Positions 2,228-33,380 of a stretch of DNA of 64,000 nt are shown here, piece by piece. Location of the stretch: positions 15,026 through 79,025 of the forward strand of contig CALWLY010000017.1 in NCBI GenBank assembly GCA_944381635.1, read 5' to 3'. How positions within the stretch are numbered: position 1 is the first letter of the stretch; each line of letters starts with the position of its first letter. The position numbers were made by a program, and so were the translations under genes. The notes under the pieces were generated by a model, which saw nothing but the letters and a program-made list of their open reading frames with translations, was not told the DNA's origin and ran no database searches. This DNA comes from an uncultured Lachnospiraceae bacterium. GTDB lineage: Bacteria > Bacillota > Clostridia > Lachnospirales > Lachnospiraceae.

Positions 2228-5200
2228 CTAGTCTTCCTGTTTATTTTGGATGCTGGCGTAGAAGGCTTCGATCTGTGCTTCCTCGGGGCTCATTCCCTGT
2301 TCTTCAAACTGAGAGGAAAGAACCGTCAGACGTCTGTAATCTTCCGGAATGATTTTTTTAAATTTAGGCAGATAGTTTTCAAAATCAGCCAGAATTCTTT
2401 TTCCTTTTTCAGAACCTGTGTGAGTCACATGAGCCTGAATGAGGCGGTACAGCTCCTCCTTGTCGCAGCGGTTTTCCACTTTTTCCATGGAAACCATTTC
2501 TTTGTTCAGACAACGGTAAAAATGATTGTCCTCATCAAGTACATAGGCGATTCCGCCGCTCATGCCTGCGGCAAAATTTTTTCCGCAGGGACCGAGAACC
2601 ACCACGCGTCCTCCGGTCATATATTCACAGCCATGTTCTCCCACACCTTCCACAACGGCGGTAACTCCGGAGTTGCGGACACAGAACCGCTCTCCGCATA
2701 TGCCGTTGATATAGGCTTCTCCGGAAGTGGCGCCGTAAAGAGCCACATTTCCCACAATGATGTTATCTTCGGCCGGAAATAAGGATTTCGGGGAAGGATA
2801 CACAATGAGTTTTCCTCCGGAAAGACCTTTGCCGAAGTAATCGTTGCTGTCACCGCAGAGTGTGAGAGTAAGGCCTTTGGGGATGAACGCACCGAAACTC
2901 TGACCGCCGGAACCCTGGCAGGAGACGGTTATGGTATCATCGGGCAGTCCTTTTGGATAGTTTCTTGTAATCTCTGAACCGAGCAAAGTGCCGAAAGTTC
3001 GGTCCGTATTCGTCAGCGTGACTGAAATCTGGGATTTGCTGCCGTTTGCAAGGGAAGCCTGTATTTTTCTGTTTTTGAGCAAAATGGACTCGTCTTTTGT
3101 TTTTTCCAGTTCAAAGTCGTAGGCAAGAGCAGGGTCAAAACATACATTGCCTGTCTTTTTGGAAAATTCTCCGTCAAGAATACGGCTTAAATCCAGTTTG
3201 GCATGATCTTCTTTTAAATTCTCTTTTTTCTTTAACAGTTCGGAGTGTCCCACCATTTCATCCACAGTTGCAAAACCTAATTTTGCCATGTATTCCCGCA
3301 GCTGACGGGCAATAAAGCGCATGAAATTTTCTACATATTCCGGTTTTCCGGCAAAGCGTTTTCTCAGCTCCGGATTTTGGGTGGCAATACCTACAGGACA
3401 GGTATCCTGACTGCAGACGCGCATCATCACACAGCCCAGAGCTACCAAAGGAGCGGTGGCAAAGCCGAATTCCTCCGCGCCTAAGAGAGCCGCAATGGCC
3501 ACATCCCTGCCGCTCATAAGTTTGCCGTCAGCCTCTAATACTACCCGGTTTCTGAGTCCGTTCTGTAAAAGCGTCTGGTGAGTTTCTGCAAGTCCAAGCT
3601 CCCAGGGAAGTCCTGCGTTGTGTATGGAACTTAACGGGGCCGCGCCGGTTCCGCCGTCATAACCGGAGATTAAAATAACCTGAGCTCCCGCCTTGGCAAC
3701 ACCTGCGGCCACTGTGCCTACGCCGGTCTCCGAAACCAGTTTCACGGATATGCGGGCGTATTTGTTGGCATTTTTCAGGTCGTAGATCAACTGGGCAAGA
3801 TCTTCGATAGAATAAATATCGTGATGAGGCGGGGGAGAGATCAGACTTACGCCCGGCGTGGAATGTCTTGTTTTGGCAATCCAGGGATAAACCTTTTTGG
3901 CGGGAAGATGACCGCCCTCCCCGGGTTTTGCCCCCTGGGCCATCTTGATCTGAATTTCTTTTGCGCTTACAAGATAGCGGCTGGTAACACCGAAACGTCC
4001 GCTGGCAACCTGTTTGATGGCGGAGCTTTTGTCAAGGGCAGTGCCTGCGCTCTCAAGCCGTTCTTCACTTTCGCCGCCTTCCCCGCTGTTGGATTTGCCG
4101 TGCAGACGGTTCATGGCAATGGCCAGTGTCTCGTGGGCTTCCTGGGAGATAGACCCGTAAGACATAGCGCCTGTTTTAAAACGTTTTACGATAGAATCCT
4201 CGCTTTCCACAAGGGATAAGTCAATTCCTTTCCCGGGATAGGCAAAATCCATAAGGCTGCGCAGATAACCGGTATCTTCCCCGTCGACAAGGCGGGTGTA
4301 TTCTTTAAATTTCTCATAGTCACCCTCACGCACGGATTGCTGGAGAAGATGGATGGTCTGAGGATTGTAACGGTGTTTTTCTCCCTGGCTTCTCAATTTA
4401 TGACGTCCCATGGAGGAAAGAGTCAGGTCGCTGTCAAGTCCCAGCGGATCAAAGGCTTTGGAGTGCTGTGCATCTGCGGCCGCACCGATATCTTTTAAGG
4501 TAATGCCTCCTACGCGGCTTACGGTTCCGGTAAAATAACGCTCTGTCACGTCGCTGGAAATGCCCACAGCTTCAAAAATCTGGCTTCCAAGATAAGATTG
4601 GATCGTAGAGATTCCCATTTTGGAAGCAATTTTTACAATGCCGGAGAGAATAGCGTGATCATAATCGGAAACAGCGGCATAATAATCTTTGGCAAGCAGG
4701 CCTTCCCTGCAAAGCTGAGCTATGGAGGCATGGGCCAGATAGGGATTTACGGCGCAGGCTCCGTAGCCTAACAGTGTGGCAAAGTCATGAACCTCTCTGG
4801 GTTCTGCGGATTCCAGCAAAATGGAAAGAGCGGTTCGTTTCTTTGTTTTTACCAGATGTTTATGGACGGCGGACACTGCAAGCAGAGAGGGAAGAGCCAC
4901 ATGATTCTCATCTACGCCTCGGTCAGAAAGAATCAGTATGTTGGCGCCGTCCCGGTAAGCTTTGTCCACCTCCACAAAAAGATGTTCCAGAACTCTTTGA
5001 ATAGGCGTGCTTTTGTAGTAGAGAATGGAAACGCAGGCCGCTTTCAGGCCGGGCCGGTTTACATGTTTGATCTTGAGCATATCAAGGTCTGTGAGAATCG
5101 GATGATTGATTTTCAGTACCCGGCAGTTTTCCGGATTTTCCTGTAAAAGATTGCCGTCCTTTCCTACATACACGGTAGTTGAGGTCACAATTTTCTCACG

Positions 5201-6781
5201 CACCGCATCAATGGGAGGATTGGTAACCTGTGCGAAAAGCTGTTTGAAATAATAAAACAGAGGCTGGTATTCTCCGGAGAGAGCGGCAATAGGTGTGTCT
5301 ACCCCCATGGCGCCAATCTGTTCAGAGCCGTTTAAAGCCATGGAATAGATGCTGTTTCGGTATTCTTCATAGGTGTACCCGAAAGCTTTCTGCAAACGGG
5401 AACGCTGCTCGTCGGTAAAAACAGGTATTTTTTCATTGGGTATCTTCAAATCAGTTAAAGAAACCAGGTTGGTATCCAGCCATTCTCCGTACGGGGATTT
5501 TCCGGAATAGGTTTCTTTTACTTTTTCATCGTCAAGAACTTCTCCCTTTACCATATCTACAAGAAGCATTTTTCCGGGATGCAGTCTTTCTTTTTTCAGG
5601 ATATGTTCTTCCGGAAGGTTCAAAACGCCTACCTCGGAAGCAAGAATAAGCCTGTCGTCATCCATCAGATAATAACGGGACGGACGCAGACCGTTGCGGT
5701 CAAGCACAGCGCCCATAACTTCACCATCCGAAAACAGGATGGAAGCAGGGCCGTCCCAGGGCTCCATCATGGTGGCATAATACTGGTAAAAGTCTTTTCT
5801 TTCCTGAGAGAGCGTGTCGTTATGGCTCCAGGGCTCCGGAATGGCAATCATAACGGCCAGAGGCAGAGGAAGACCGCTCATCACAAGAAATTCCAGGGTA
5901 TTATCAAGCATGGCAGAGTCGGAACCTTCTGTGTTTACAACGGGCAGGATTTTGGTCATGTCTTCCGCACTGAAGGCGGACGTTTTCATTGTTTCTTCTC
6001 TGGCAAGCATCTTGTCGGCATTGCCTTTTATCGTATTTATCTCTCCGTTATGTACAATAAAACGGTTTGGATGAGCCCGTTCCCAGCTTGGGTTGGTGTT
6101 TGTGGAAAAACGGGAATGCACCATAGCCACAGCCGATTTATAGTCAGGATCCTGCAGGTCGGCAAAAAAAGTGCGGAGCTGATCTACCAGAAACATACCT
6201 TTGTAGACGATGGTGCGGCTGGAAAGAGAAGGCACATAGGTGTTGTCGTTGCTTTGTTCGAAAACCCGGCGCACAAGGTAAAGCTTTCGGTCAAAATCAA
6301 GACCTTTTCCGGTTGTTTCCGGTCTCTTTACAAATCCCTGGCAGATAACAGGCATACAGTCCTTTGCCTTCTGGCCTAAAACTTCCGGATGAACGGGAAC
6401 TTTCCGCCAGCCCAGAAACTGCATTCCTTCTTTTTCCACGATGATCTCAAACATTTTTTTTGCCTGGCTTCGTTTGAGTTCATTGGCAGGAAAGAAAAAC
6501 ATACCGACTCCGTAGTCCCCTTCTTCTCCGATGGAAATGGAAGATAGGGGACAGATTTTTTTGAAGAAATCATGAGAGATCTGTGTGAGAATACCCACGC
6601 CGTCTCCGGTTTTTCCTTCCGCATCTTTTCCGGCGCGATGCTCCAGATTTTCCACAATCTTAAGCGCGTCATCCACCACAGAGTGGCTCTTTATTCCTTT
6701 TATATTCACAACGGCTCCGATACCGCAGTTATCGTGTTCAAATGAAGGACTGTAAAGTCCGGATACCTTTGGTTGGCTCAT
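2228..6781 (-). CDS. gltB: glutamate synthase large subunit
   Basis: About 1517 aa with the N-terminal amidotransferase Cys (HDNCGIGAV), an FMN/Fe-S central domain and a C-terminal GXGXG domain. The start MSQPK at 6781 is 8 nt after AGGAGG. Confidence 0.95.
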   Translation of the reverse strand: MSQPKVSGLYSPSFEHDNCGIGAVVNIKGIKSHSVVDDALKIVENLEHRAGKDAEGKTGDGVGILTQISHDFFKKICPLSSISIGEEGDYGVGMFFFPANELKRSQAKKMFEIIVEKEGMQFLGWRKVPVHPEVLGQKAKDCMPVICQGFVKRPETTGKGLDFDRKLYLVRRVFEQSNDNTYVPSLSSRTIVYKGMFLVDQLRTFFADLQDPDYKSAVAMVHSRFSTNTNPSWERAHPNRFIVHNGEINTIKGNADKMLAREETMKTSAFSAEDMTKILPVVNTEGSDSAMLDNTLEFLVMSGLPLPLAVMIAIPEPWSHNDTLSQERKDFYQYYATMMEPWDGPASILFSDGEVMGAVLDRNGLRPSRYYLMDDDRLILASEVGVLNLPEEHILKKERLHPGKMLLVDMVKGEVLDDEKVKETYSGKSPYGEWLDTNLVSLTDLKIPNEKIPVFTDEQRSRLQKAFGYTYEEYRNSIYSMALNGSEQIGAMGVDTPIAALSGEYQPLFYYFKQLFAQVTNPPIDAVREKIVTSTTVYVGKDGNLLQENPENCRVLKINHPILTDLDMLKIKHVNRPGLKAACVSILYYKSTPIQRVLEHLFVEVDKAYRDGANILILSDRGVDENHVALPSLLAVSAVHKHLVKTKKRTALSILLESAEPREVHDFATLLGYGACAVNPYLAHASIAQLCREGLLAKDYYAAVSDYDHAILSGIVKIASKMGISTIQSYLGSQIFEAVGISSDVTERYFTGTVSRVGGITLKDIGAAADAQHSKAFDPLGLDSDLTLSSMGRHKLRSQGEKHRYNPQTIHLLQQSVREGDYEKFKEYTRLVDGEDTGYLRSLMDFAYPGKGIDLSLVESEDSIVKRFKTGAMSYGSISQEAHETLAIAMNRLHGKSNSGEGGESEERLESAGTALDKSSAIKQVASGRFGVTSRYLVSAKEIQIKMAQGAKPGEGGHLPAKKVYPWIAKTRHSTPGVSLISPPPHHDIYSIEDLAQLIYDLKNANKYARISVKLVSETGVGTVAAGVAKAGAQVILISGYDGGTGAAPLSSIHNAGLPWELGLAETHQTLLQNGLRNRVVLEADGKLMSGRDVAIAALLGAEEFGFATAPLVALGCVMMRVCSQDTCPVGIATQNPELRKRFAGKPEYVENFMRFIARQLREYMAKLGFATVDEMVGHSELLKKKENLKEDHAKLDLSRILDGEFSKKTGNVCFDPALAYDFELEKTKDESILLKNRKIQASLANGSKSQISVTLTNTDRTFGTLLGSEITRNYPKGLPDDTITVSCQGSGGQSFGAFIPKGLTLTLCGDSNDYFGKGLSGGKLIVYPSPKSLFPAEDNIIVGNVALYGATSGEAYINGICGERFCVRNSGVTAVVEGVGEHGCEYMTGGRVVVLGPCGKNFAAGMSGGIAYVLDEDNHFYRCLNKEMVSMEKVENRCDKEELYRLIQAHVTHTGSEKGKRILADFENYLPKFKKIIPEDYRRLTVLSSQFEEQGMSPEEAQIEAFYASIQNKQED

Positions 6782-6797
6782 TTTCATTTCCTCCTTG

Positions 6798-8435
6798 TTA
6801 TGGCAGTTTCGTTTTGGCCGGTTCTTCCTGTGTGTGTTCATTTTTCAAGGCTGCGGCAATAAAGCCCTGAAACAGCGGATGCGCCCGGTTGGGTCGGGAC
6901 TTAAATTCCGGATGCGCCTGCGTGGCGATAAAGAAGGGGTGACCGGAAAGCTCGGCAATTTCAGCAATCTTTCCATCCGGAGAAAGGCCCGACAATAAAA
7001 GACCGTACTCTGAAAATAGGCTGCGATAGGCGTTGTTGACTTCATAACGGTGTCTGTGACGCTCAAAAATAAGGTCTTTATGATAAAGTTCGCTGGCAAG
7101 GCTTCCTTTTCTCAAAACGCAGGGATAAGATCCCAGCCGGAGCGTGCCGCCGATGTCTGTAACGTCGTTTTGGTCGGGCATAAGGGAAATCACAGGGTGA
7201 GGGGTTTCCGGGCAGAATTCCGTGCTGTCTGCTTCTTTTAAGCCAATTACATTTCTGGCAAATTCTATTACGGCAAGCTGCATGCCAAGGCAGATGCCCA
7301 GAAAAGGAACGCCGTGCGTTCTTGCATAGGTGACAGCCAGCATCTTTCCGGCACAGCCTCTTATGCCGAAACCTCCGGGAACTAAAATTCCGTTCACATC
7401 GTGAAGATAGCTTTCTGTGTTTTCCGGCGTCAGTTCTTCAGCATCCACCCATCGGATATTGACGATGGTATGGTTGGCAATTCCGCCGTGCTTTAAAGCT
7501 TCCACTACGCTTAAGTAAGCATCGTGAAGGCTTACATATTTTCCTACAAGAGCAATGGTAACGCTTGCTTTGGGAGAATGCATGGCGTTTACCATGGAAA
7601 TCCAGTCGGAAAGTTCCGGAGCGGGGCAGGGAAGATGCAGGCACTCACAGGCGGCCTGTGCAAGCTTTTCTTTTTCCATCATAAGAGGCACTTCATAAAG
7701 CGAGGAGGCATCCAGGTTCTGAAGCACATGTTCTTTTTTTACATTGCAGAACAGTGAGATTTTTTCCCTGATATCATCATCAAGTTCTTTATCGGAACGA
7801 CAGACAAGAATATCCGGCCAAAGGCCCATACCCTGAAGCTCTTTGACGCTCATCTGTGTTGGCTTTGTCTTCATCTCGCCGGAGGCTTTGATATAGGGAA
7901 TGAGAGTGACATGGATCAAAATAGCATTTTCCCGACCCATTTCGTGCTGAAACTGACGTATGGCCTCCAGAAAAGGCTGGCTTTCGATATCGCCCACCGT
8001 TCCGCCTACCTCAATAATGGAAATAGTCTGTTCATCCGGGCTTTTTTCCCGATAAAACAACGATTTGATTTCGTTGGTAATATGGGGAATTACCTGAACG
8101 GTTCCACCGCCGTAATCCCCTCTGCGTTCCTTTGACAGGACACTCCAGTATATTTTTCCGGTGGTCACATTGGAATTATGGTCCAGATTTTCATCGATAA
8201 ATCTTTCATAATGTCCAAGGTCTAAATCTGTTTCCGTGCCGTCGTCCGTGACAAAGACTTCTCCGTGCTGGATCGGATTCATAGTTCCCGGATCCACATT
8301 AATGTAGGGGTCCAGCTTCTGCATGGTTACATGATACCCTCTGGCCTTTAAGAGCCGCCCCAGGGAAGCTGCGGTGATGCCTTTTCCCAGTCCGGAAACA
8401 ACTCCTCCTGTTACAAAAATATACTTTACTGCCAT
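6798..8435 (-). CDS. pyrG: CTP synthase
   Basis: [21 protein letters not shown]-terminus and a C-terminal glutamine amidotransferase domain (GICLGMQ). RBS is AAAGGAGAA. The stop lies only 16 nt before the gltB start, so the two are probably co-transcribed. Confidence 0.96.
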
Positions 8436-8454
8436 AGTTTTTCTCCTTTTCCTG

Positions 8455-8504
8455 TCAAATAAAAAAGGCGTCAGAAAGACTCTGATAAGTCTTCTGACGC
8501 CTTT
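8455..8504 (-). terminator. intrinsic terminator inside the pyrG-gltBD leader (attenuator)
   Basis: Minus strand reads AAAGGCGTCAGAAGAC-loop-GTCTTTCTGACGCCTTT followed by TTTATTT. It ends about 20 nt before the pyrG RBS. Confidence 0.7.
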
Positions 8505-8509
8505 GTCAA
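8494..8509 (-). promoter_or_regulatory. putative antiterminator hairpin TTGAC-AAAGGC-GTCAG (AAMGGC hexaloop family)
   Basis: 5-bp stem (one U.G pair) with hexaloop AAAGGC. The loop and 3' arm are the first 11 nt of the terminator's 5' arm. Confidence 0.55.
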
Positions 8510-8564
8510 CCTTATAAATTTAATCAGCGGAATACAAAATATTCCAAAGTCAAATACTTTTGCC

Positions 8565-8586
8565 CAGGTCAAATATATTTGACCTG
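8565..8586. promoter_or_regulatory. perfect 22-bp palindrome CAGGTCAAATATATTTGACCTG in the pyrG / GSIII divergent region (candidate operator)
   Basis: Read directly from the sequence. An extra direct half-site GTCAAATA lies at 8549-8556, 19 bp upstream of the one at 8568-8575. Confidence 0.3.
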
Positions 8587-8718
8587 TGATGCCGCCGGTT
8601 TTTTCATGTTTGTATGAAACACATAACCTTAAAACCTCAGCCTTTTAATATGCGTTTTACTATAAACCATGATTTGGCGGTTGTAAAGGGGTTTTTACCA
8701 AAAATTTTGGAAAACGGG

Positions 8719-8746
8719 TTGACAGGAAGAAAAAAAGGAGTATACT
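8719..8746 (+). promoter_or_regulatory. sigma-A type promoter of the GSIII-glmS operon
   Basis: TTGACA, 16-nt spacer, TATACT. The hairpin at 8757 starts about 4 nt after the expected transcription start. Confidence 0.55.
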
Positions 8747-8756
8747 ACAAAACCAT

Positions 8757-8772
8757 AAAGCAACGGCGCTTT
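8757..8772 (+). promoter_or_regulatory. putative antiterminator hairpin AAAGC-AACGGC-GCTTT (AAMGGC hexaloop family)
   Basis: 5-bp stem with hexaloop AACGGC. The loop and 3' arm overlap the terminator's 5' arm AACGGCGCTTTGG. Confidence 0.55.
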
Positions 8773-8801
8773 GGAGAAATCCGAAGTGCCGTTTTTTATT
8801 T
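8762..8801 (+). terminator. intrinsic terminator in the GSIII-glmS leader (attenuator)
   Basis: 13-bp stem AACGGCGCTTTGG / CCGAAGTGCCGTT (two G.U pairs), loop AGAAAT, then TTTTTTATTT. It lies about 120 nt upstream of the start codon. Confidence 0.7.
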
Positions 8802-8922
8802 CATTGAAAAGCTATGCTGCATTAAAGTGCAAAAGAGCTGCCTTTTCTATGAAATAAAAACGCTCCGCTGTGGATGCGCACTTTTTATACAGCAGGCGGC
8901 GGATAAAGAAAGGAGAATGAAT

Positions 8923-11022
8923 ATGGCAGTAAAAATTCCTCAGATGTATGGAAGTCTTGTATTTAACGATAAGGTTATGCGGGATAAACTTCCGAAAGAT
9001 ATTTACAAAGCATTGAGAAAAACCATTGAAAATCATACGCATCTGGAGCTGGATGTGGCAAATTCCGTAGCGGTAGCCATGAAAGAATGGGCCGTGGAGA
9101 ATGGAGCGACTCATTATACGCACTGGTTCCAGCCTATGACAGGGTTTACCGCAGAGAAGCATGACAGTTTTATTACGCCTGTGGGAGATGGTCAGATCAT
9201 CATGGATTTTTCCGGCAAAGAGCTGGTGAAGGGGGAGCCGGATGCATCCAGTTTTCCTTCCGGAGGATTAAGAGCCACTTTTGAGGCCAGAGGCTATACT
9301 GCCTGGGATCCCACCTCTCCGGCCTTTATCAAGGACGGCACTCTTTATATTCCGACCGCTTTCTGTTCTTACAGCGGGGAAGCGCTGGATAAGAAGACGC
9401 CTCTTCTTCGTTCCATGGAAACGCTGGAAAAAGAAGCTGTAAAAATCCTTCACTTGCTGGGAAATACGCAGGTAAACGGAGTTTCTGCAACGATAGGAAG
9501 TGAACAGGAATATTTTCTTGTAGATAAAAAGCTTTTCGAACAGAGAAAAGACCTTATTTTTACAGGAAGGACGCTGCTTGGCGCCATGCCTCCCAAAGGG
9601 CAGGAAATGGAAGATCACTATTTTGGCACATTAAAACCAAGAGTTTCCGCATATATGCATGAGCTGGATGAAGAGCTGTGGAAGCTGGGAATTCCCGCCA
9701 AGACCAAACATAATGAAGTGGCGCCTGCACAGCATGAACTGGCGCCGGTATTTGATACGGCTAACATAGCGGCAGATCACAACCAGCTTACGATGGAAAT
9801 TATGAAAAAAGTTGCCGATAAGCATGGAATGGTATGTCTGCTGCACGAGAAGCCTTTTGAGGGTATTAACGGATCGGGAAAACATAATAACTGGTCACTG
9901 ATTACCAATACCGGTGTCAACCTGCTGGATCCCGGACGCACGCCTGCAGAGAATGCACAATTTCTTGTCTTTTTGATGGCAGTGATCAAAGCAGTGGATG
10001 AATATGCAGATCTGATGCGCATTTCCGTGGCAACGGCAGGAAATGACCATAGACTGGGAGCCAATGAAGCGCCTCCGGCCATTGTATCGATATTTTTGGG
10101 GGATGAACTGACAGCAGTTCTTCAGGCTATCGAAAATGACAGATTTTTTGACAGTCAGGAAAAAGTACAGATGGAAACCGGGGCCACAGTGCTTCCTCAC
10201 TTTTTTAAGGACAACACAGACAGAAACCGTACCTCACCTTTTGCTTTTACCGGAAACAAATTTGAGTTCCGTATGCCGGGTTCTTCTCTTTCCGTGGCAG
10301 GCCCCAACATTATTTTAAATACAGCAGTGGCGGAAGCACTCAGACAGTTTTATAAAGAACTGGAAGGAACCCCTCAGGATCAGATGCTGGACGCTGTGAA
10401 GGCTCTGGTAAAAAGAGCAGTGAAGAAACATAAAAAGGTGATTTTCAATGGAAACGGCTACACGGACGAATGGGTGAAAGAGGCGGAAAAGAGAGGCCTT
10501 TACAACTTAAAATCCACACCGGAAGCATTGCCTCATTTTGTGGATGAGAAAAACATCAGACTGTTTACGGATCATCATATTTTTACCAGAGAGGAAATTT
10601 TCTCCCGGTATGAGATTTGGCTGGAAAGTTACAGCAAGACTCTTCGCATTGAGGCTAAGACTTTGCAGTCCATGATAAGCGCACAGTTCCTTCCGACATT
10701 GACAGAATCTATGACAAAAATCTGCGCTTCCATCAAAGGAAAGAGGGAAACCATTGCCGGAATTTCCTGCGGTGCAGAAGAAAAACTGTTAAAAGATATG
10801 GCAGATTGCTATAACAAAATAACGGATGCAAAAGAAAAGCTGGCAGAGGATCTGCTTTCCGCCGGGAAGATCCAGGATAAAAAAGAGGAAGCTTTCTATT
10901 ATCACGATGTGATTTTGAAGGATATGGAGGATATTCGTAAAATTGCCGACAAAGCGGAGGAGAATATTCCGGAAAAACTGATGCCTTATCCGTCCTATGA
11001 AAAACTTCTGTTTTCTATCTGA
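8923..11022 (+). CDS. glnN: glutamine synthetase, type III
   Basis: About 699 aa. The N-terminus MAVKIPQMYGSLVFNDKVMRDKLPKD ... THYTHWFQPMTG matches the GSIII N-terminal domain, and a GS catalytic core follows (NGSGKHNNWS). The start at 8923 is 7 nt after AGGAG. I treat the ORF-track start at 8614 as leader read-through. Confidence 0.9.
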   Translation: MAVKIPQMYGSLVFNDKVMRDKLPKDIYKALRKTIENHTHLELDVANSVAVAMKEWAVENGATHYTHWFQPMTGFTAEKHDSFITPVGDGQIIMDFSGKELVKGEPDASSFPSGGLRATFEARGYTAWDPTSPAFIKDGTLYIPTAFCSYSGEALDKKTPLLRSMETLEKEAVKILHLLGNTQVNGVSATIGSEQEYFLVDKKLFEQRKDLIFTGRTLLGAMPPKGQEMEDHYFGTLKPRVSAYMHELDEELWKLGIPAKTKHNEVAPAQHELAPVFDTANIAADHNQLTMEIMKKVADKHGMVCLLHEKPFEGINGSGKHNNWSLITNTGVNLLDPGRTPAENAQFLVFLMAVIKAVDEYADLMRISVATAGNDHRLGANEAPPAIVSIFLGDELTAVLQAIENDRFFDSQEKVQMETGATVLPHFFKDNTDRNRTSPFAFTGNKFEFRMPGSSLSVAGPNIILNTAVAEALRQFYKELEGTPQDQMLDAVKALVKRAVKKHKKVIFNGNGYTDEWVKEAEKRGLYNLKSTPEALPHFVDEKNIRLFTDHHIFTREEIFSRYEIWLESYSKTLRIEAKTLQSMISAQFLPTLTESMTKICASIKGKRETIAGISCGAEEKLLKDMADCYNKITDAKEKLAEDLLSAGKIQDKKEEAFYYHDVILKDMEDIRKIADKAEENIPEKLMPYPSYEKLLFSI

Positions 11023-11058: not shown

Positions 11059-12885
11059 ATGTGTGGAATCACAGGATACATTGGAAGTATGCAGGCCGCT
11101 CCGGTGATTTTAGAAGGGCTTTCCAGGCTGGAATACCGAGGGTATGACTCTGCCGGAATAGCCGTCTTTGACGGTGAAAAAATCCGGATGGAAAAGGCTG
11201 CAGGCAGGCTGAAAGTATTGGAGGAACTGACAGATCACGGCAAAAATATGCCGGGAACCTGCGGTATTGGGCATACCCGGTGGGCTACTCATGGATGCCC
11301 TTCGGATATAAACGCACATCCCCATATGAATGAGGAGAATACCATAGCGGTAGTTCACAACGGAATCATTGAAAATTATGACATTTTAAAACAACGGCTG
11401 CTCAAAAAGGGCTATCACTTTTCTTCCGATACAGACACAGAAGTGCTGGTACATATGCTGACCGAATATTATCGGGGAAATCCGGTGGAGGCAATTGAAA
11501 AGGTGATGCACCGTGTGGAGGGTTCCTATGCTCTTGGCATTATGTTTAAAAATCATCCCCATCATATATACGCAGCCAGAAAGGACAGTCCCCTTATTAT
11601 CGGATTCAGCGATACGGGAAAGTATATCGCTTCCGATGTTCCGGCTGTTTTAAATCAGACAAGAAATGTTTATTATATGGAAAATGAGGAAATAGCCTGC
11701 CTTTCCTATGAGCATATCCGCTTTTTTAATATGGACAGCGAGCCTGTGGAGAAAACACCGGTGACGGTGGATTGGGATATTGATGCAGCGGAAAAAGGCG
11801 GTTACGAGCATTTCATGTTAAAGGAGATTTATGAACAGCCAAAGGCTTTCAGAGATACCATTTCTCCTCGTATTAAAAATGGGGAAATTGTGCTTGATGA
11901 ACTTAACATGAGTGATGAAGAACTGAGAAAAATACGGAAAATCTTCCTTGTGGCCTGTGGTTCCGCTTACCATACCGGGGCAGCGGCAAAATATATCATA
12001 GAACGCTTGGCAGGAATCTCTGCAGAAGCCGATCTGGCCAGCGAATTCCGCTATCGGGAGCCTGTCTATGAAGAAGACTCCATGGTTGTTATTGTCAGTC
12101 AGTCCGGGGAAACTGCAGATTCTTTGGCAGCGTTAAGGGATGCGAAGGCTCATGGATGCAGGGTGATAGCTATCGTGAACGTGGTGGGCAGTTCCATTGC
12201 AAGAGAAGCGGATGCGGTTCTTTACACATGGGCAGGGCCGGAGATTTCCGTGGCAACTACCAAAGCTTACAGCTGCCAGTTGGGCGTACTGTATCTGCTT
12301 GCTTTAAAGCTTGCCGGTGTAAGAGGCCGTCTTGCAAAGGAGCAGGAGAAAAAAATGCTGGATGCTCTGTGCAGGCTGCCTGAACAGATGGAGGAAATCT
12401 TAAAAAATAAAGAAAAGATTCAATACTTTGCCAATCATTACCTGGCTACAGAACACATTTTTTTCATGGGAAGAGGTATCGATTATGCCATTTCCATGGA
12501 AGCTTCTCTGAAACTGAAAGAGATTTCCTATATCCATTCCGAAGCGTATGCCGCCGGGGAACTGAAGCATGGGACAATTTCCCTGGTGGAACCGGGAACC
12601 CTGGTGGCAGCAGTGGCCACACAGGATAGACTTTATGCCAAAACGGTCAGCAATATTGTGGAAGTAAAGACACGAGGGGCTTTTGTGCTGGCACTCACAA
12701 CATGGAAACATAAGGAAATGGAAAAAGAGGCGGATTATGTAATCTTTATTCCGGAAACAGAGGATGTGTTTATGGCGTCTTTGGCAATTCTTCCTCTGCA
12801 GCTGTTTGCCTACTACGTATCGGTCGGAAGAGGACTGGACGTAGATAAACCGAGGAATCTGGCAAAATCTGTGACTGTGGAGTAA
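11059..12885 (+). CDS. glmS: glutamine--fructose-6-phosphate aminotransferase
   Basis: MCGITGYIG N-terminal nucleophile, two SIS domains and C-terminal KSVTVE. It starts only 36 nt after the GSIII stop. Confidence 0.96.
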   Translation: MCGITGYIGSMQAAPVILEGLSRLEYRGYDSAGIAVFDGEKIRMEKAAGRLKVLEELTDHGKNMPGTCGIGHTRWATHGCPSDINAHPHMNEENTIAVVHNGIIENYDILKQRLLKKGYHFSSDTDTEVLVHMLTEYYRGNPVEAIEKVMHRVEGSYALGIMFKNHPHHIYAARKDSPLIIGFSDTGKYIASDVPAVLNQTRNVYYMENEEIACLSYEHIRFFNMDSEPVEKTPVTVDWDIDAAEKGGYEHFMLKEIYEQPKAFRDTISPRIKNGEIVLDELNMSDEELRKIRKIFLVACGSAYHTGAAAKYIIERLAGISAEADLASEFRYREPVYEEDSMVVIVSQSGETADSLAALRDAKAHGCRVIAIVNVVGSSIAREADAVLYTWAGPEISVATTKAYSCQLGVLYLLALKLAGVRGRLAKEQEKKMLDALCRLPEQMEEILKNKEKIQYFANHYLATEHIFFMGRGIDYAISMEASLKLKEISYIHSEAYAAGELKHGTISLVEPGTLVAAVATQDRLYAKTVSNIVEVKTRGAFVLALTTWKHKEMEKEADYVIFIPETEDVFMASLAILPLQLFAYYVSVGRGLDVDKPRNLAKSVTVE

Positions 12886-12954: not shown

Positions 12955-13079
12955 ATGCAACAAAACGAAACATTCATCCATGTTAGAATCCTTTCATGTA
13001 AAGCACTTCGGCATGAAAAATGCCGCAGGAAAAAGTGAAATCCACCGGGTACGGTGGGAAAAATGAAAGGAGATTTCAG

Positions 13080-14738
13080 ATGGAAAATAAAATTCAGAAT
13101 CAGCCGGAAATGTTTTGCTTTCAGTGTCAGGAGACTGCAGGCTGCCGCGGCTGCACTCACGCAGGTGTATGCGGCAAAACTGCGCGCACTGCCAGGCTTC
13201 AGGATATGCTTCTTTATGTGACAAAAGGACTTTCACAGATTACTGCATCTATGAGAGAGGAAGGAAAAGAAATTCCCGACAGCATTAACGACAGAGTGAC
13301 AGAGAATTTGTTTGTCACGATTACCAATGCAAATTTTGACGACGAAAAGATTACAGAGCTTATTTTCCGGACTATGGATGAAGCAGTTTGGTTGAAAACT
13401 CAGTGCGGATGTGGAAAAGTTTTCGGCCCGGCGGCGGAGTATGTGGAAAAGGACCCTGAGAAATTGCTTGAAAAGGCAGGAGAGATAGGAATATTGTCCA
13501 CGGAAAATGAAGACATCAGAAGTTTGCGGGAGCTGATTACCTATGGTCTTAAAGGAATGGCCGCCTATCTAAAGCATGCTAACGCTCTTGGAAAGGACAG
13601 CAAAGAGATTCATGCCTTTTTACAGTCTGCACTTGCGGCAACTCTTGACGATACGCTTGGTGCGGATCAGCTTGTGGCATTGGCATTGGAAACCGGAAAA
13701 TACGGAGTAGATGTCATGGCGCTTTTGGATGAGGCCAATACTTCGCGCTTTGGAAATCCTGAGATCACAAAGGTAAACATCGGTGTGCGCAAAAATCCGG
13801 GTATTCTTATTTCCGGACATGACTTAAACGATTTGGAAATGCTTTTAAAACAGACAGAAGGAACGGGCGTGGATGTGTACACTCATTCGGAAATGCTTCC
13901 CGCACACTATTATCCGGCATTTAAAAAGTACAGTCATTTTGCAGGAAATTATGGAAATGCATGGTGGAAGCAAACAGAAGAATTTGAATCCTTCAACGGT
14001 CCCGTGCTTCTTACCACCAATTGTCTGGTGCCTCCGAAAGCGTCCTATAAAGACCGCGTATACACGACCGGAGCCGCAGGTTTTCCGGGCTGTAAGCACA
14101 TTTCGGCGGGAATCGGGGAAGAGAAAGATTTCAGTGAATTGATTGCCCATGCAAAAAGATGTCAGCCGCCTAAAGAAATTGAAACAGGAGAAATCATAGG
14201 CGGATTTGCGCATAATCAGGTTCTGGCTTTGGCAGACAAGATTGTGGAAGCCGTCAAGAGCGGGGCGATCCGTCGGTTCGTAGTGATGGCCGGCTGCGAC
14301 GGAAGAAGCAAATCCAGAGATTATTACACAGAATTCGCGAAAGCTTTGCCGAAAGATACGGTCATCCTGACAGCAGGCTGTGCAAAGTATAAATATAACA
14401 AACTTAATCTGGGTGATATCGGAGGAATTCCCAGAGTGCTGGATGCGGGACAGTGCAACGATTCCTATTCTCTGGCAGTGATTGCGCTGAAACTAAAGGA
14501 AGTATTCGGTCTTTCTGATATCAATGAGCTTCCGATAGTTTATAACATTGCCTGGTATGAGCAGAAGGCGGTTATTGTTCTGCTTGCCCTTTTGCATCTG
14601 GGTGTGAAAAACATTCACCTTGGCCCTACGCTCCCTGCCTTTTTATCCCCCAATGTGGCAAAAGTGCTGACAGAAAACTTTGGAATTTCCGGCATTACCA
14701 CGGTAGAAAAAGATATGGAACTATTTTTTCAGTCATGA
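13080..14738 (+). CDS. hcp: hydroxylamine reductase / hybrid-cluster protein
   Basis: N-terminal [21 protein letters not shown] cysteine motif and about 552 aa. The start MENKIQ at 13080 follows AAAGGAGA. Confidence 0.92.
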
Positions 14739-15706
14739 ATTTCTGCTTCCCGATGCAGAAATTCGGAAGGGGTACAGGCGGTAAACTGTCGGAAAACCGA
14801 GGTGAAATAGCTGCTGGTATTAAAGGACAGTTCCATGGCCGTATCGGTGATGGAGCTGCCGGAGAGCAGCAGTCGCTTGGCTTCCTCAATTTTTTGCTGG
14901 TTGATATAAAGGCGCGGCGATATGCCAAGCTGTTTCTTAAATTTCTGCTTGAACTGAGAGAGAGAAAGGCCGCTGAATGAGGCGATTTTTTCCAGCTCAA
15001 GCTCCTCGCGTATATGAAAATGAATATAGGAAAGGGCCGCTTCCATATCGGCAGTTATGGGAGCGGTTCTTTTTTCGTCGGAATCCGCAATCTGATAGAG
15101 AAGAGCGGACAGAAGGCTGGCAGCCATGCAGCGTCCCGAAGGGGTATCCTGGAGAATTGCCTGAAAAGCTCTGTTCAGGAAAAGAAAGCTTTTCTCGGAA
15201 TCAAAAGAAACGATACGAGTTCCGTTTTCGGTAAGCATGGAAAAAAGTATTTTTGCAGATTCCGAAGTCAGATAAAGGGGATTCTCACAGCAGGTTTCCA
15301 ACTGCAGCCAGTAAATTTTTCCGATGGAAAAAGGAAGCTTGTTGGTACTGTGTATCTCCCCGGGCGATGTGATAAGAATTTCGCCGGGACGCAGGGAATA
15401 GGAGCCTTTTTCGGTTTCAAAATGAAAGGAGCCTTCCAATATAAAGACAAACTCCGCCGCTTCTCTGTGAAAATGCTTCGGAATATCCGGAAAGGCGTGT
15501 ATATTGGTCTGAAAACCGAAGGTCCTAAGACCCGGAATCTGAATCTGTTTTTCTGTAAGCAGGATGCGGTGTCTTGTAAATTCATATTCATCCACGCAGT
15601 CTATGACGGTTTCCGGGAAAGCCGGGCCGTCACTTTTTTCTTTTTCAGGATAGCTTGGAATATGTCCCGGTATGATATAATAAGGTAAATCCTTTTTTTT
15701 CTCCAT
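14729..15706 (-). CDS. AraC family transcriptional regulator with cupin-like sensor domain
   Basis: Cupin-like N-terminal region ([15 protein letters not shown]) and a C-terminal AraC HTH ([34 protein letters not shown]). The start at MEKKKD is uncertain because the RBS is weak. The gene is divergent from the GH38 gene. Confidence 0.8.
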
Positions 15707-15858
15707 AAATAAATGGCTTGCTTTCAGGGTGAGACTATCAATTTTGTACGGGATACATAATTGATAGCAAATGAAATTGCTATATTGTAGGATACCAGAA
15801 GAAAAAGGAAAATGAAAGAATGACATAAAAATATTTCAAAAAACAAGGAGGAAACAAA

Positions 15859-22925: not shown

Positions 22926-23248
22926 TTGACAAAAAAAAATCGAGAGACTATGATGTAAGCATATTTATAAAAAAAGCGTTGACAGGAAGAGTATGGCATT
23001 GGAAGCGGACAGAGAGAAAGGCATATGGTGGAAGCCTTTTGCGCAGGAAAATGCAGGAAGACCACCCTGGAGCGTCCCTTAATCGGGAACGGTGATTCCG
23101 TTATCATCACAGATGAGAGGCATGCAGGTCAGGATTTTGTTTCCGTTGATTTCATAGGTCTGAAAGCTATGCATGCAAGCAGGGTGGAACCGCGTGAACA
23201 GACGTCCCTTCAGAAAGCATTTAACCATGTTTTCTGGAGGGTTTTTTT
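22926..23248 (+). promoter_or_regulatory. T-box riboswitch (Thr, specifier ACC) with its promoter and terminator, controlling thrS
   Basis: Promoter TTGACA-17-TATGAT (22926-22954). AGAGAG box, specifier-loop context GAAG-ACC-A at 23061-23063, T-box sequence AGCAGGGTGGAACCGCG at about 23179-23195, and terminator CCCTTCAGAAA ... TTTTCTGGAGGG plus T7 (23206-23248). Confidence 0.85.
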
Positions 23249-23311: not shown

Positions 23312-25240
23312 ATGAACATCATATTAAAAGATGGAAGTCATAAGGAGTACAGCCAGCCAATGACAATTTTGGAAGTGGCAAAAGATATCAGCGAAGGTTT
23401 GGCAAGAGCAGCCTGTGCAGGAGAAGTGAATGGAGAGGTGCAGGATTTGCGGACAGTACTTTCCGAGGACTGCCACCTGAATATTTTGACAGCAAAGGAT
23501 GAGAGCGGTCTGGCAGCTCTGCGTCACACAGCCAGCCATGTGATGGCACAGGCAATCAAACGCCTTTATCCGGAAACAAAGCTTGCAATTGGACCGTCCA
23601 TTGCAGATGGTTTTTATTATGATTTTGAATTTGCATCTCCGCTTACCAGCGATGACTTTGGAAAAATCGAAGCAGAAATGAAAAAGATTATCAAAGAAAA
23701 TCTTCCGATTGAACGCTTTGTACTTCCCAGAGAAGAAGCAATCAAACTGATGCAGGAAAGAAACGAACCTTACAAAGTGGAACTGATTGAAGACCTGGAG
23801 GAAGGCGAAGAGATCAGTTTTTATAAACAGGGTGAATTTGTGGATCTGTGCGCAGGCCCTCATCTGATGAGCACCAAATACGTAGGAAAGGCATTTAAGT
23901 TAATGAGCCTTGCAGGCGCTTACTGGAGAGGCGATGAGCACAATAAGATGCTGACTCGTATCTATGCAACAGCTTTTGGCACAAAAGAAGAGCTGGAAGC
24001 TTATGAAACTATGATGGAGGAAGCAAAAAAGAGAGACCACAGAAAACTGGGAAAAGAACTGGGACTGTTCATGATGCATGAAGCAGGACCGGGATTCCCG
24101 TTCTTCCTTCCTAAAGGAATGGTATTAAAAAACGTTTTGCTGGATTACTGGAGAGAAGTCCACAGAAAAGCCGGCTATGTGGAAATTTCCACACCTGTTA
24201 TATTAAACCGCAGTCTCTGGGAGACATCTGGTCACTGGGCTCACTATAAAGACAATATGTATACTACGGTAATCGACGGAGAAGATTATGCAGTCAAACC
24301 GATGAACTGCCCGGGCGGCGTGCTTGTGTATGCTTCAGAGCCCCGTTCGTATCGTGATCTGCCGCTGAGAATGGGAGAACTGGGACTGGTTCACAGACAT
24401 GAGAAATCCGGACAGATGCACGGACTGATGCGTGTTCGCTGCTTTACACAGGACGATGCTCATATTTTCATGACACCGGAGCAGATCAAAGAGGAAATTA
24501 AAAATGTGGCAAAGCTTATCGATGAAGTATATTCCCTGTTTGGTTTCCGTTATCATGTAGAACTTTCTACAAGACCGGAAGACAGCATGGGAAGTGATGA
24601 AGATTGGGAACTGGCAACAGATGCGCTCAGAAACGCCCTGGATGAGCTGAACCTTCCTTATGTAGTCAACGAGGGAGACGGAGCTTTCTATGGACCTAAG
24701 ATTGATTTCCATCTGCAGGACTCCATCGGACGTACCTGGCAGTGCGGAACGATCCAGCTTGATTTCCAGCTTCCTCAGCGTTTTGAACTGGAATACACAG
24801 GCGCAGACGGAGAAAAACATCGCCCGATTATGATCCACCGTGTAGTATTCGGTTCTATCGAGCGTTTCATCGGAATTTTAATCGAGCATTTTGCAGGAGC
24901 ATTTCCGACATGGCTTGCGCCCGTTCAGGTAAAAGTTCTTCCAATCTCCGACAAGTATGCGGATTATGCTGAAAAAGTATGCTGCGAGCTTTGCGATACA
25001 GGAATCCGTGCGGAGACAGATATGCGCTCCGAGAAAATCGGCTACAAGATCCGTGAAGCACAGACTTCTAAAATTCCGTACATGCTGATCGTCGGTCAGA
25101 AGGAAGAGGAAGAAGGCAGTGTATCCGTAAGAAGCCGTTTTGCCGGTGATGAAGGAAGCATGGAACTTCAGGAGTTTGTCGGCAGAATAAAGGAAGAAAT
25201 AGACGGCAAAATCCAACGCCAGACAGAGAAAAAAGATTGA
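23312..25240 (+). CDS. thrS: threonine--tRNA ligase
   Basis: 642 aa with a TGS N-terminus (MNIILKDGSHKEY), a class II core and an anticodon-binding domain. It lies directly downstream of a Thr T-box. Confidence 0.96.
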   Translation: MNIILKDGSHKEYSQPMTILEVAKDISEGLARAACAGEVNGEVQDLRTVLSEDCHLNILTAKDESGLAALRHTASHVMAQAIKRLYPETKLAIGPSIADGFYYDFEFASPLTSDDFGKIEAEMKKIIKENLPIERFVLPREEAIKLMQERNEPYKVELIEDLEEGEEISFYKQGEFVDLCAGPHLMSTKYVGKAFKLMSLAGAYWRGDEHNKMLTRIYATAFGTKEELEAYETMMEEAKKRDHRKLGKELGLFMMHEAGPGFPFFLPKGMVLKNVLLDYWREVHRKAGYVEISTPVILNRSLWETSGHWAHYKDNMYTTVIDGEDYAVKPMNCPGGVLVYASEPRSYRDLPLRMGELGLVHRHEKSGQMHGLMRVRCFTQDDAHIFMTPEQIKEEIKNVAKLIDEVYSLFGFRYHVELSTRPEDSMGSDEDWELATDALRNALDELNLPYVVNEGDGAFYGPKIDFHLQDSIGRTWQCGTIQLDFQLPQRFELEYTGADGEKHRPIMIHRVVFGSIERFIGILIEHFAGAFPTWLAPVQVKVLPISDKYADYAEKVCCELCDTGIRAETDMRSEKIGYKIREAQTSKIPYMLIVGQKEEEEGSVSVRSRFAGDEGSMELQEFVGRIKEEIDGKIQRQTEKKD

Positions 25241-25374: not shown

Positions 25375-25390
25375 AGAACAAAGGCGTTCT
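25375..25390 (+). promoter_or_regulatory. putative antiterminator hairpin AGAAC-AAAGGC-GTTCT (AAMGGC hexaloop family)
   Basis: 5-bp stem with hexaloop AAAGGC. GGCGTTCT is also the start of the terminator's 5' arm. Confidence 0.55.
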
Positions 25391-25427
25391 AAACTGAGGT
25401 ACCTCAGTTTAGAGCGCCCTTTTTTTA
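25383..25427 (+). terminator. intrinsic terminator in the glnA leader (attenuator)
   Basis: 17-bp arms GGCGTTCTAAACTGAGG / CCTCAGTTTAGAGCGCC (one G.U pair) followed by CTTTTTTT. Confidence 0.8.
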
Positions 25428-25509
25428 CTCAATATGAGTAAAAAAGGGCATAAATGCACATGATGCGCGAGAAGAAAATGCTGCCAAAAGCAGCTGCGCT
25501 TCGGCGCGA

Positions 25510-25534
25510 TAGTCCGCAAGCGGACTATTATTTT
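25510..25534 (+). terminator. second, weaker terminator-like hairpin in the glnA leader
   Basis: TAGTCCG-CAAG-CGGACTA followed by TTATTTT, about 30 nt before the glnA start. Confidence 0.35.
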
Positions 25535-26879: not shown

Positions 26880-27431
26880 ATGAGCAGCATTGTCATTACA
26901 TTGCCCAAAATTGAAAATGCCAGACAGATTCGGGATATTCTGGTTCGCCATGGTTTCACCGTGGATGCTCTCTGCACCACCGGAGCCGGTGCACTGATTG
27001 AAATGAACCGTCTGGACTGTGGAATTGTGATCTGCGGCTATCGCTTTTCGGATATGTATTACACACAGCTTGCGGAAAGTATGCCGGAAAGCTTTGAAAT
27101 ACTGTTGATTGGCTCTGCGCAGGCAGTTGCGGATTGTCCCTCCGGGCTGGTTTCTCTCACAATGCCTTTAAAATCCTATGAACTGATAAACACGGTGCAG
27201 ATGATGCTGGTTCAGAATGCCCGCCGTTATAAAAAACGCAAAGCGCGGCCAAAAGTTCGGGATGAAAAGGAAAAAAACTATATTCAGAACGCAAAGAGGC
27301 TGCTTATGGAAAGAAATCATATGAGTGAGGAAGATGCATACCGGTATATTCAAAAATGCAGTATGGATTCCGGCACCAATATGGTGGAGACCGCCCAGAT
27401 GATTTTGATGCTTATCTATGAAGAACTTTAA
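26880..27431 (+). CDS. ANTAR-domain RNA-binding antiterminator with pseudo-receiver domain (NitR/AmiR-like)
   Basis: C-terminal ANTAR signature (IQNAKRLLMERNHMSEEDAYRYIQKCSMDSGTNMVETAQMIL). The N-terminal receiver-like fold lacks the acidic pocket: IVITLPK replaces the DD pair, and GIVICG replaces the phospho-Asp strand. Confidence 0.8.
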   Translation: MSSIVITLPKIENARQIRDILVRHGFTVDALCTTGAGALIEMNRLDCGIVICGYRFSDMYYTQLAESMPESFEILLIGSAQAVADCPSGLVSLTMPLKSYELINTVQMMLVQNARRYKKRKARPKVRDEKEKNYIQNAKRLLMERNHMSEEDAYRYIQKCSMDSGTNMVETAQMILMLIYEEL

Positions 27432-33167: not shown

Positions 33168-33264
33168 CCGCCTGCGGCGGGTCGCTCTGCGATTTATTTC
33201 CTTTCCGCCGCAGTGCGATTTATCATCTTTTTTATACGGCAGGGAATAAAATTTCCTGCCGTAT

Positions 33265-33338
33265 AAAAAAGGCGTTCATGAGAAAAACGATTTCAGGGAA
33301 TAGTATTCCTTAAATCAGTCTTTCTCATGAACGCCTTT
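33265..33338 (-). terminator. intrinsic terminator in the carAB leader (attenuator)
   Basis: Minus strand reads AAAGGCGTTCATGAGAAA ... TTTCTCATGAACGCCTTT (18-bp arms) followed by TTTATAC. Confidence 0.7.
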
Positions 33339-33344
33339 GTTCAT
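33327..33344 (-). promoter_or_regulatory. putative antiterminator hairpin ATGAAC-AAAGGC-GTTCAT (AAMGGC hexaloop family)
   Basis: 6-bp stem with hexaloop AAAGGC. The loop and 3' arm are the first 12 nt of the terminator's 5' arm. Confidence 0.6.
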
Positions 33345-33351
33345 CCGCATA

Positions 33352-33380
33352 AGTATAGCAAAAAGAAAAAAGGCGGTCAA
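33352..33380 (-). promoter_or_regulatory. sigma-A promoter of carAB
   Basis: TTGACC, 17-nt spacer, TATACT. The predicted start site is about 0-2 nt from the base of the hairpin. Confidence 0.6.

Follow-up and report, generated by a model that had tools for sequence, protein, structure and literature searches.

Few RNA-binding regulators of bacteria are as widespread as the ANTAR proteins, whose targets have been defined and sought as dual hairpins for a decade. These targets are defined by hexaloops in which the first nucleotide is A and the fourth is G (A1 and G4; PMC3369931, PMC3369936), and the ANTAR attenuators that have been dissected, eut, nasF, amiE and NalA of Pseudomonas putida, all have two hexaloops (PMC3369931, PMC10783516). 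In eut, the two hairpins P1 and P2 are separated by a linker of 5–12 nucleotides (nt) (Ramesh 2012). The structure of EutV with RNA (6WW6), published in 2022, redefined the minimal ANTAR binding unit as a single hexaloop; the EutV dimer contacts a single hexaloop at once and has similar affinity for the P1 and P2 hexaloops in isolation, and the authors called for bioinformatics on the extent of single-hexaloop sites (PMC8934654). In Geobacter sulfurreducens, GnfR binds RNA with CAGGCAANGGCGCC in vitro, overlapping nif terminators, and that paper neither describes the site as a hexaloop hairpin nor states whether a second one exists (PMC2995071). NitR of Clostridium saccharobutylicum is reported in a review (PMC6316151, citing Stutz 2007) to induce the genes of glutamine synthetase (GS) and glutamate synthase (GOGAT) under nitrogen limitation by antitermination. 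Here, we analyzed the leader of an operon for type III glutamine synthetase (GSIII) and GlmS in 64,000 nt of DNA from an uncultured Lachnospiraceae bacterium (contig CALWLY010000017.1; this whole stretch is called the window), in which one hexaloop hairpin directly follows a predicted promoter and shares its sequence with an intrinsic terminator.

We consider it likely that this leader is an ANTAR-dependent attenuator with a single hexaloop, the binding, the direction of control, the signal and the transcription start being inferred. Apart from the lack of two tandem hairpins, the element appears to have the sequence features of an ANTAR motif, and it would work like the P2 half of such a motif.

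Promoter, hairpin and terminator of the GSIII-glmS leader

The leader and the operon comprise the following features.
8719..8724, + strand: -35 hexamer TTGACA of the GSIII-glmS promoter (promoter match 11/12; invariant in 62/62 promoter-bearing orthologous leaders)
8741..8746, + strand: -10 hexamer TATACT (commonest variant, 26/62; the orthologous -10 ends 8–12 nt before the stem)
8752..8755, + strand: predicted transcription start, from the usual 6–9 nt spacing after the -10 hexamer
8756..8773, + strand: antiterminator hairpin and proposed ANTAR binding site, with stem (T)AAAGC/GCTTT(G), hexaloop AACGGC at 8762–8767 and a C-G closing pair
8762..8801, + strand: intrinsic terminator, with a 14-base-pair (bp) stem at 8762–8793, a GAAA loop and the tail T6ATTT
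8923..11022, + strand: GSIII, the first gene proposed to be regulated (Pfam GSIII_N, Gln-synt_C and Gln-synt_C-ter)
11059..12885, + strand: glmS, glutamine-fructose-6-phosphate amidotransferase (Pfam GATase_6/7 and two SIS domains), 36 nt after the GSIII gene

An earlier note on this DNA had read a promoter, TTGACA-16-TATACT, at 8719–8746, and the two hexamers were found there with the 16-nt spacer, as the sole plus-strand promoter-like site within 8000–9500. The hairpin that it had drawn from 8757 was also recovered, with AAAGC at 8757–8761, the hexaloop, which carries the A1 and G4 of the ANTAR motif, and GCTTT at 8768–8772; a sixth pair, U-G, between T8756 and G8773 extends the stem to 8756. 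The -10 hexamer lies 10 nt from A8757, and the predicted start would put the stem at about +2 to +6. The location of the terminator, its T6ATTT tail (TTTTTTATTT) and its end at 8801 were as previously described, whereas the stem, given as 13 bp, has 14 pairs by the count of the tool. Half of these pairs (7 of 14) are G-C, and the U-run follows directly, as in an intrinsic terminator. Because the terminator stem spans 8762–8793, its 5′ arm consists of the entire hexaloop and the 3′ arm of the hairpin. The Pfam domains agreed with the previous naming of the genes as GSIII and glmS.

In the folding analysis, the RNA of 8752–8802 folded as the terminator at -25.5 kcal/mol (z = -7.1), and none of 200 shuffled sequences was equally stable; the small hairpin by itself had -5.2 kcal/mol. 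A stable terminator against a weak hairpin is the energy relation expected of a protein-dependent antiterminator. The 120 nt from the terminator to the GSIII start codon showed no significant structure by folding (z = -0.8).

The promoter was compared among 80 loci with GSIII orthologues (66–81% identity, nearly all Lachnospiraceae), which were sampled as 8-kb loci. A promoter with a score of at least 10/12, ending 8–12 nt before a 5-bp stem, was present in 62 of the 68 motif-bearing GSIII leaders of other Lachnospiraceae, with a mode of 9 nt, and the same configuration of promoter and stem occurred at 0.16% of random positions. When the leaders were anchored on the hexaloop, the order upstream was an A/T-rich tract, the invariant TTGACA, a non-conserved spacer of 16–18 nt, TAnnnT, about 9 nt and the stem, and the orthologous core (T)AAAGC-AANGG[C/U]-GCTTT(G) was followed by the terminator. 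An abutting promoter was also found in the glnA leaders of Blautia and Faecalicatena and in several glmS, asnB, amtB and pyrG leaders. This conserved placement strongly supports the promoter call, with the start itself predicted. Because the promoter abuts the hairpin, an upstream P1 hairpin could not be transcribed, and most leaders have no space for P1 and a linker. The earlier note had argued that an upstream second hairpin has no room here and that the site is not a canonical dual-hairpin site, provided that its promoter call was right; the phylogeny now supports that proviso well, and with it the argument.

Conservation and folding of the hairpin

The hairpin was then considered as an RNA element. 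In 90 distinct copies, the loop consensus was AANGG[C/U], in which A1, A2, G4 and G5 were invariant, as was the G that begins the 3′ arm. The closing pair was C-G in 84 copies and U-G in the other 6, giving a full consensus of (G/A)C-AANGG(C/U)-G(C/U). In contrast to this fixed loop, the stem sequence changed between gene classes through compensatory pairs, with the variants AAAGC/GCTTT, CTGAC/GTCAG, AACGC/GCGTT, GCGAC/GTCGC and ATGAAC/GTTCAT. Among these stem-selected copies, there were 122 double-change cells, compared with 42.7 ± 5 in shuffles and 15–42 when the partners were slid. The pattern of conservation is an RNA rather than a DNA signature.

In the folding of 118 copies, the median energy was -23.2 kcal/mol for the terminator form and -3.65 kcal/mol for the hairpin alone. 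Loop nucleotides 4–6 were paired in the terminator form in 116–117 of the 118 copies, so that hairpin and terminator are mutually exclusive, and even the variable loop position 3 was matched by its partner in the terminator (A:U 86, G:C 6, G:U 6, C:G 3 and U:A 1). The apical part of the terminator was free to vary in length and sequence across leaders. The stretch that begins with the first hairpin base and ends with the terminator stem had a median length of 41 nt, and polymerase would add about 20–25 nt after the hairpin is complete before the terminator is. A looser scan, for the loop and a loosely defined terminator without a stem requirement, gave 381 matches, most of them false (coding regions and antisense strands of terminators); their stem lengths were bimodal, and 120 matches had at least 4 bp, compared with 1.3% in slid controls.

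The proposed regulator and its targets

The window was searched with a pattern scan and with a covariance model of the hairpin, with filters off (128 kb). Four covariance matches, at 26.6 (the GSIII leader, E = 2e-5), 23.3, 22.0 and 20.7 bits, stood above the noise, the next being at 13.8 bits, and these four copies belonged to the training set of the model. All four sit in leaders of nitrogen genes. The proposed regulator and the three further copies are listed below.
26880..27431, + strand: 183-aa ANTAR protein with a pseudo-receiver domain (NitR/AmiR-like), the proposed trans-acting antiterminator (Pfam ANTAR PF03861, E = 2e-15)
8461..8509, - strand: second copy, TTGAC-AAAGGC-GTCAG (hairpin 8509–8494; 20.7 bits) and terminator, 70 nt upstream of pyrG
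25375..25426, + strand: third copy, AGAAC-AAAGGC-GTTCT (hairpin 25375–25390; 23.3 bits) and a 16-bp terminator, in the leader of glnA-ANTAR-aminotransferase
33265..33380, - strand: fourth copy with its promoter, TTGACC-17-TATACT at 33380–33352, in the carAB leader (22.0 bits)

The genome thus encodes an ANTAR-domain protein within the window itself. Its top sequence match in the PDB was EutV (6WSH), to which it is only 22% identical. The AlphaFold2 (AF2) model (mean pLDDT 87) combined a receiver-like domain of the (beta-alpha)5 type with a long helix and an ANTAR bundle of three helices, and the top Foldseek matches of this model were EutV with RNA (6WW6), Rv1626 and RNA-free EutV (6WSH), with AmiR further down. 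In 12 homologues, the acidic pocket of the receiver was missing: the acidic pair is replaced by LPK, the phospho-Asp position that follows beta-3 holds G, S or C, and the conserved Pro downstream of beta-5 lacks a preceding Lys; these equivalences were assigned by eye from motifs and not by structural superposition. Because the acidic pocket is missing, the domain is regarded as a pseudo-receiver, as in AmiR, and the protein is not a phosphorylatable REC-ANTAR response regulator of the GnfR type. In EutV, the flipped G4 is held by R142, K149, E160 and Y164 (PMC8934654), and these residues align to K, K, E and Y in the protein of the window.

The gene order glnA-ANTAR(-aminotransferase) was found in the window, in Blautia, in Faecalicatena and at other loci, and co-transcription of the ANTAR gene with glnA is indicated by this order in the window and in relatives. 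A receiver-like domain that cannot be phosphorylated, a place beside glnA and an element in the glnA leader, which would allow autoregulation, are the features of a NitR/AmiR-like regulator. Five points argue for the ANTAR protein as the reader of the hairpin: the A1/G4 hexaloop (PMC3369931, PMC3369936); the GC-AANGGC-GC core, which is also part of the RNA bound by GnfR (PMC2995071); the element in the glnA-ANTAR leader; the retained G4-contact residues; and the role reported for NitR in Clostridium saccharobutylicum (PMC6316151). The ANTAR gene, the pyrG-gltBD and glnA copies, the GnfR core match and the 2022 structure were all missing from the earlier note. The third gene of the operon (27447–28664, + strand) scores as LL-diaminopimelate aminotransferase (614 bits with TIGR03542, whose cut-off is 365), and a gene of similar length from the Aminotran_1_2 family follows the ANTAR gene in Blautia and at one other locus.

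Based on these observations, the following mechanism is proposed. Transcription would start about 6–9 nt after TATACT, and the first RNA structure, at about +2 to +20, would be a weak hairpin of 5–6 bp with the hexaloop AACGGC closed by C-G. Without bound protein, the downstream CCGAAGUGCCGUU would invade this hairpin, the 14-bp terminator would take up the 3′ arm together with the entire loop, and RNA polymerase would halt at the U-run about 50 nt into the transcript. The active ANTAR protein would clamp the hairpin by its hexaloop, contacting A1, G4 and the closing pair like other ANTAR sites are contacted, and the clamped hairpin would withhold the 5′ arm of the terminator and allow read-through into the GSIII gene and glmS. 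ANTAR activity is presumed to rise under glutamine or nitrogen scarcity. A single hexaloop hairpin per terminator would suffice, with no P1 "recruitment" hairpin, and the same device would act on glnA-ANTAR (as autoregulation), pyrG-gltBD and carAB.

The targets in the window are GSIII-glmS, glnA-ANTAR with its LL-diaminopimelate-type aminotransferase, pyrG-gltBD and carAB, and those added by the relatives are an AmtB-GlnK fusion, asnB, glmS alone and the gatCAB operon. All of them are a glutamine synthetase, an ammonium channel or a glutamine amidotransferase, and this shared theme points to glutamine or nitrogen status as the signal. In relatives (L002, L010, L014, L023 and others), the AmtB-GlnK fusion gene (575–600 aa) often replaces glmS after GSIII, with its own hairpin and terminator about 20–100 nt after the GSIII stop codon. 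The element is likewise present at genes for asparagine synthetase, asnB (L072, L080, L058 and L048 are among the loci with AmtB-GlnK or asnB copies). In Faecalicatena (L084/L085, 4565–4640), GGTTAC-AA(G/A)GGC-GTAACC lies directly after the ANTAR stop codon and precedes a class-II aminoacyl-tRNA synthetase gene (Asp/Asn type) followed by gatCAB, which suggests that tRNA-dependent amidation is part of the regulon.

With regard to pyrG, the genes pyrG-gltB-gltD, all supported by Pfam, are transcribed divergently from the GSIII gene, and pyrG carries the motif in 17 related loci. They form an apparent operon of pyrG (CTP synthase, 6798–8435), gltB (2228–6841) and gltD (675–2195), all on the minus strand, and the leader has an ANTAR-type hairpin and terminator in place of a CTP-sensing leader. 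The best minus-strand promoter of pyrG, TTTACA-17-TATAGT (8687–8659), stands back to back with the GSIII promoter, and the resulting leader of about 140 nt contains the palindrome GTCAAATATATTTGAC (8569–8584).

In the leader of glnA (type I GS), a 12/12 promoter lies about 110 nt upstream of the element. The T-run of the terminator is part of a near-perfect palindrome, CCCTTTTTTTACTCA..TGAGTAAAAAAGGG (25417–25448, + strand), which could pair the U-tract with the downstream A-tract and may be a bidirectional terminator or an additional layer of control. A further terminator-like hairpin (25508–25529) stands just ahead of the ribosome-binding site of glnA. The carAB leader was described earlier as having the same layout as the GSIII leader and the same -10 hexamer, TATACT, and both points proved correct: 7 nt after the -10 hexamer comes ATGAAC-AAAGGC-GTTCAT (33344–33327), followed by a long terminator with a T-run (-37.5 kcal/mol, z = -9.4). 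This leader, of about 240 nt, also has a second terminator-like hairpin, AGAATCTCGCAAAGCGAGATTCT, followed by ATTTTAT (33145–33167, - strand) and preceded by a G+C-rich inverted repeat, CTGCGGCGG...CCGCCGCAGG (33170–33230, - strand); the second hairpin may be an independent attenuator, for example an arginine- or pyrimidine-responsive one.

Elsewhere in the window, a T-box leader (22970–23212, + strand; 98.6 bits, above the gathering score) lies upstream of a threonyl-tRNA synthetase gene (23312–25240). The gene that follows glmS encodes a hybrid-cluster (prismane) protein (13020–14738, + strand) and has no attenuator motif upstream, and an AraC-family regulator gene (14729–15826, - strand) converges on it.

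Alternative readings and comparison with known systems

One alternative keeps the attenuator and gives the hairpin to another RNA-binding protein, or to no factor, the terminator then being constitutive or kinetically tuned. The low identity of the pseudo-receiver protein to EutV (22%) leaves room for this, as does the fact that the regulator was assigned by co-location, the A1/G4 signature and the analogy with GnfR. However, the loop is conserved far beyond the needs of terminator pairing, the leader of the ANTAR gene itself carries the element, as expected of autoregulation, the regulon is coherent around glutamine, an ANTAR site with experimentally shown binding contains the GC-AANGGC-GC core (PMC2995071), and the protein keeps the G4-contact residues. 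We judge this alternative unlikely.

A canonical dual-hairpin ANTAR site would require the true start to lie further upstream, with P1 transcribed from the promoter-like region. All dissected ANTAR attenuators have two hexaloops, and the GSIII start is a prediction, but the 40 nt upstream of the stem follow a promoter pattern and not that of a hairpin, with TAnnnT separated by a non-conserved spacer from an invariant TTGACA in 62 of 68 species, and there is no other plus-strand promoter in 8000–9500. The promoter thus takes the position of P1 in 62 of the 68 GSIII leaders. An AxxGxx hexaloop hairpin of at least 3 bp was found within 20 nt upstream in 6.0% of 117 copies and in 7.1% of shuffles, and a second one downstream in 11% of copies compared with 7.5% of shuffles, which is the background frequency; the covariance model gave a single match per leader in the window. 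Transcribed room upstream exists in the copies right after the GSIII stop codon, in many pyrG leaders and in the glnA leader of the window, and no second hexaloop hairpin was found in these intergenic copies, in the pyrG leaders or in that glnA leader. The two tandem stem-loops of the canonical motif, P1 and P2 with a short linker, were not found. A dual-hairpin site is therefore very improbable here.

Two GSIII leaders, at L060 (2873–2990) and L061 (300–430), carry two complete units of hairpin and terminator in tandem, for example AGAGC-AAAGGT-GCTTT with its terminator and then ATGC-AAAGGC-GCAT with another; these are serial attenuators and not a P1-P2 pair. A metagenome scan for paired loops, CAAAGGCG-N6-30-CAANGGCG, gave stems of at least 3 bp on both loops in 7 of 123 matches, among the matches listed; no terminator occurred among these listed matches, and the scan is uninformative on a dual version of the AANGGC loop elsewhere.

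It is still less probable that AAAGC-N6-GCTTT, at +3 to +20, is the DNA operator of a dimeric repressor with an unrelated terminator. A location just past the -10 hexamer is typical of repressor operators, but here the spacer, which is the loop, is conserved and the arms vary compensatorily, the opposite of an operator; moreover, the element also stands right after the GSIII stop codon and at distances of over 100 nt from promoters, and in every case shares its loop with a terminator fused to it. A factor-free 5′-end mechanism like that of the Bacillus subtilis pyrG leader, in which nucleotide-sensitive reiterative transcription makes the antiterminator, is scarcely credible: the element lies at the very 5′ end, pyrG and carAB belong to the pyrimidine pathway and a weak PyrG_leader match covers 8729–8802, but this match falls well short of the threshold (23.4 bits, E = 0.84; gathering score 65) and is on the GSIII rather than the pyrG leader, the antiterminator arm is templated and not added, the element also occurs at non-5′ positions, and the conserved hexaloop has no role in such a mechanism.

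In Rfam 15 at gathering thresholds, nothing was found at the site, including PyrG_leader (RF02371), the glutamine riboswitch and the T-box, and we regard the matches in 8430–8930 at permissive E values (PyrG_leader and rliE) as chance. Given the way in which the element is conserved and the lack of matches, we rejected its reading as a PyrR site, a T-box, a riboswitch or a DNA operator.

Several points weigh against the single-hexaloop ANTAR attenuator. The isolated small hairpin has no thermodynamic significance (z = -1.2). The copies used for covariation were preselected for at least 4 flanking pairs, so that the pairing of the inner four positions is partly circular; this does not apply to the variety of pair types seen with a fixed loop. 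The co-occurrence of motif and regulator was seen within 8-kb loci, not genome-wide, and for this organism the start site, the termination efficiency and the contact of protein and RNA are all predicted. In one study, a lone EutV stem-loop was bound far less well than the pair (PMC3369931), and changed P1-P2 spacing abolished antitermination for EutV (PMC8934654); an attenuator with one hairpin is thus contrary to the only systems tested.

We lean slightly toward a broader proposal, namely that Lachnospiraceae have a natural class of ANTAR attenuators in which a lone hexaloop, usually at the very beginning of the transcript, is enough for antitermination during transcription. A pseudo-receiver ANTAR protein, co-transcribed with type I GS, would then coordinate a regulon centred on glutamine, which comprises the two glutamine synthetases, AmtB-GlnK and most of the glutamine amidotransferases, and this protein may sense glutamine status via a partner protein such as GS. 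In that case, ANTAR action would not generally require the P1 "recruitment" hairpin. These results suggest that ANTAR antiterminator proteins can work without this second hairpin, and tighter loop recognition (AANGG[C/U] with the C-G closing pair) and the 5′-terminal placement may compensate for the missing P1. A 22-nt RNA and a 183-aa protein would make the element a conserved and tractable counter-example to the presumed need for two hairpins; it recurs in four operons of these 64 kb and in dozens of Lachnospiraceae from gut and rumen. In addition, it outlines how abundant gut Firmicutes may coordinate glutamine synthesis and ammonium uptake with glutamine-consuming biosynthesis, the pathways concerned being those of hexosamine, CTP, carbamoyl phosphate, asparagine and Gln/Asn-tRNA.

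In the literature on ANTAR in Lachnospiraceae and Clostridia, on glutamine synthetase and on single-hairpin sites, no description of the element was found, the RNA target of Clostridium NitR being outside this comparison. In the entries of Table S2 that we consulted from the dual-hairpin covariance search of 2012, the three from Lachnospiraceae (Butyrivibrio, Eubacterium eligens and Roseburia) adjoin hypothetical proteins only, and glutamine synthetase matches appear in other Clostridia; a single-hairpin element explains this gap.

Compared with the dual-hexaloop ANTAR RNAs (EutV/eutP, NasR/nasF, AmiR/amiE and NasT/NalA; PMC3369931), the element has the same short stem, A1/G4 hexaloop and closing pair that matters, the 3′ half of the hairpin is likewise the 5′ half of the terminator, and here, too, the ANTAR protein is encoded nearby and nitrogen genes are involved. 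It differs in having one hairpin, the equivalent of P2, without P1 or linker, and its loop is far more constrained (AANGG[C/U] with C-G closing) than the A1/G4 rule. The GnfR site (nif, glnK and amtB leaders; PMC2995071) shares the GC-AANGGC-GC core overlapping the 5′ side of a terminator in leaders of nitrogen genes, but GnfR is a true phosphorylated response regulator acting with sigma-54 promoters in a deltaproteobacterium, whereas here a pseudo-receiver protein, predicted promoters of the sigma-70 type and a 5′-end hairpin are found. As for EutV with RNA in 6WW6, the contact residues K149, E160 and Y164 are kept in the protein of the window and R142 is replaced by K. That work retained P1 as a necessary recruitment hairpin for co-transcriptional antitermination and expected single hexaloops only where there is no polymerase clock, whereas here single hexaloops occur in attenuators (PMC8934654).

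NitR, to the extent that it is described in PMC6316151, is likewise a small ANTAR protein adjacent to glnA that controls GS/GOGAT genes by antitermination, and the Lachnospiraceae regulon is wider than the one described there, with glutamine amidotransferases, amtB-glnK and GSIII. AmiR of Pseudomonas aeruginosa also has a receiver-like domain without a phospho-acceptor site, but no AmiC-like partner is evident here. The RAT elements of BglG, SacY and LicT resemble the element in that one protein-stabilized hairpin overlaps the terminator; in contrast, they are read by an unrelated CAT domain, which recognizes internal stem loops instead of a terminal hexaloop. The regulatory class and the nitrogen theme are known, and what appears to be new is an ANTAR attenuator with a single, usually 5′-terminal hexaloop.

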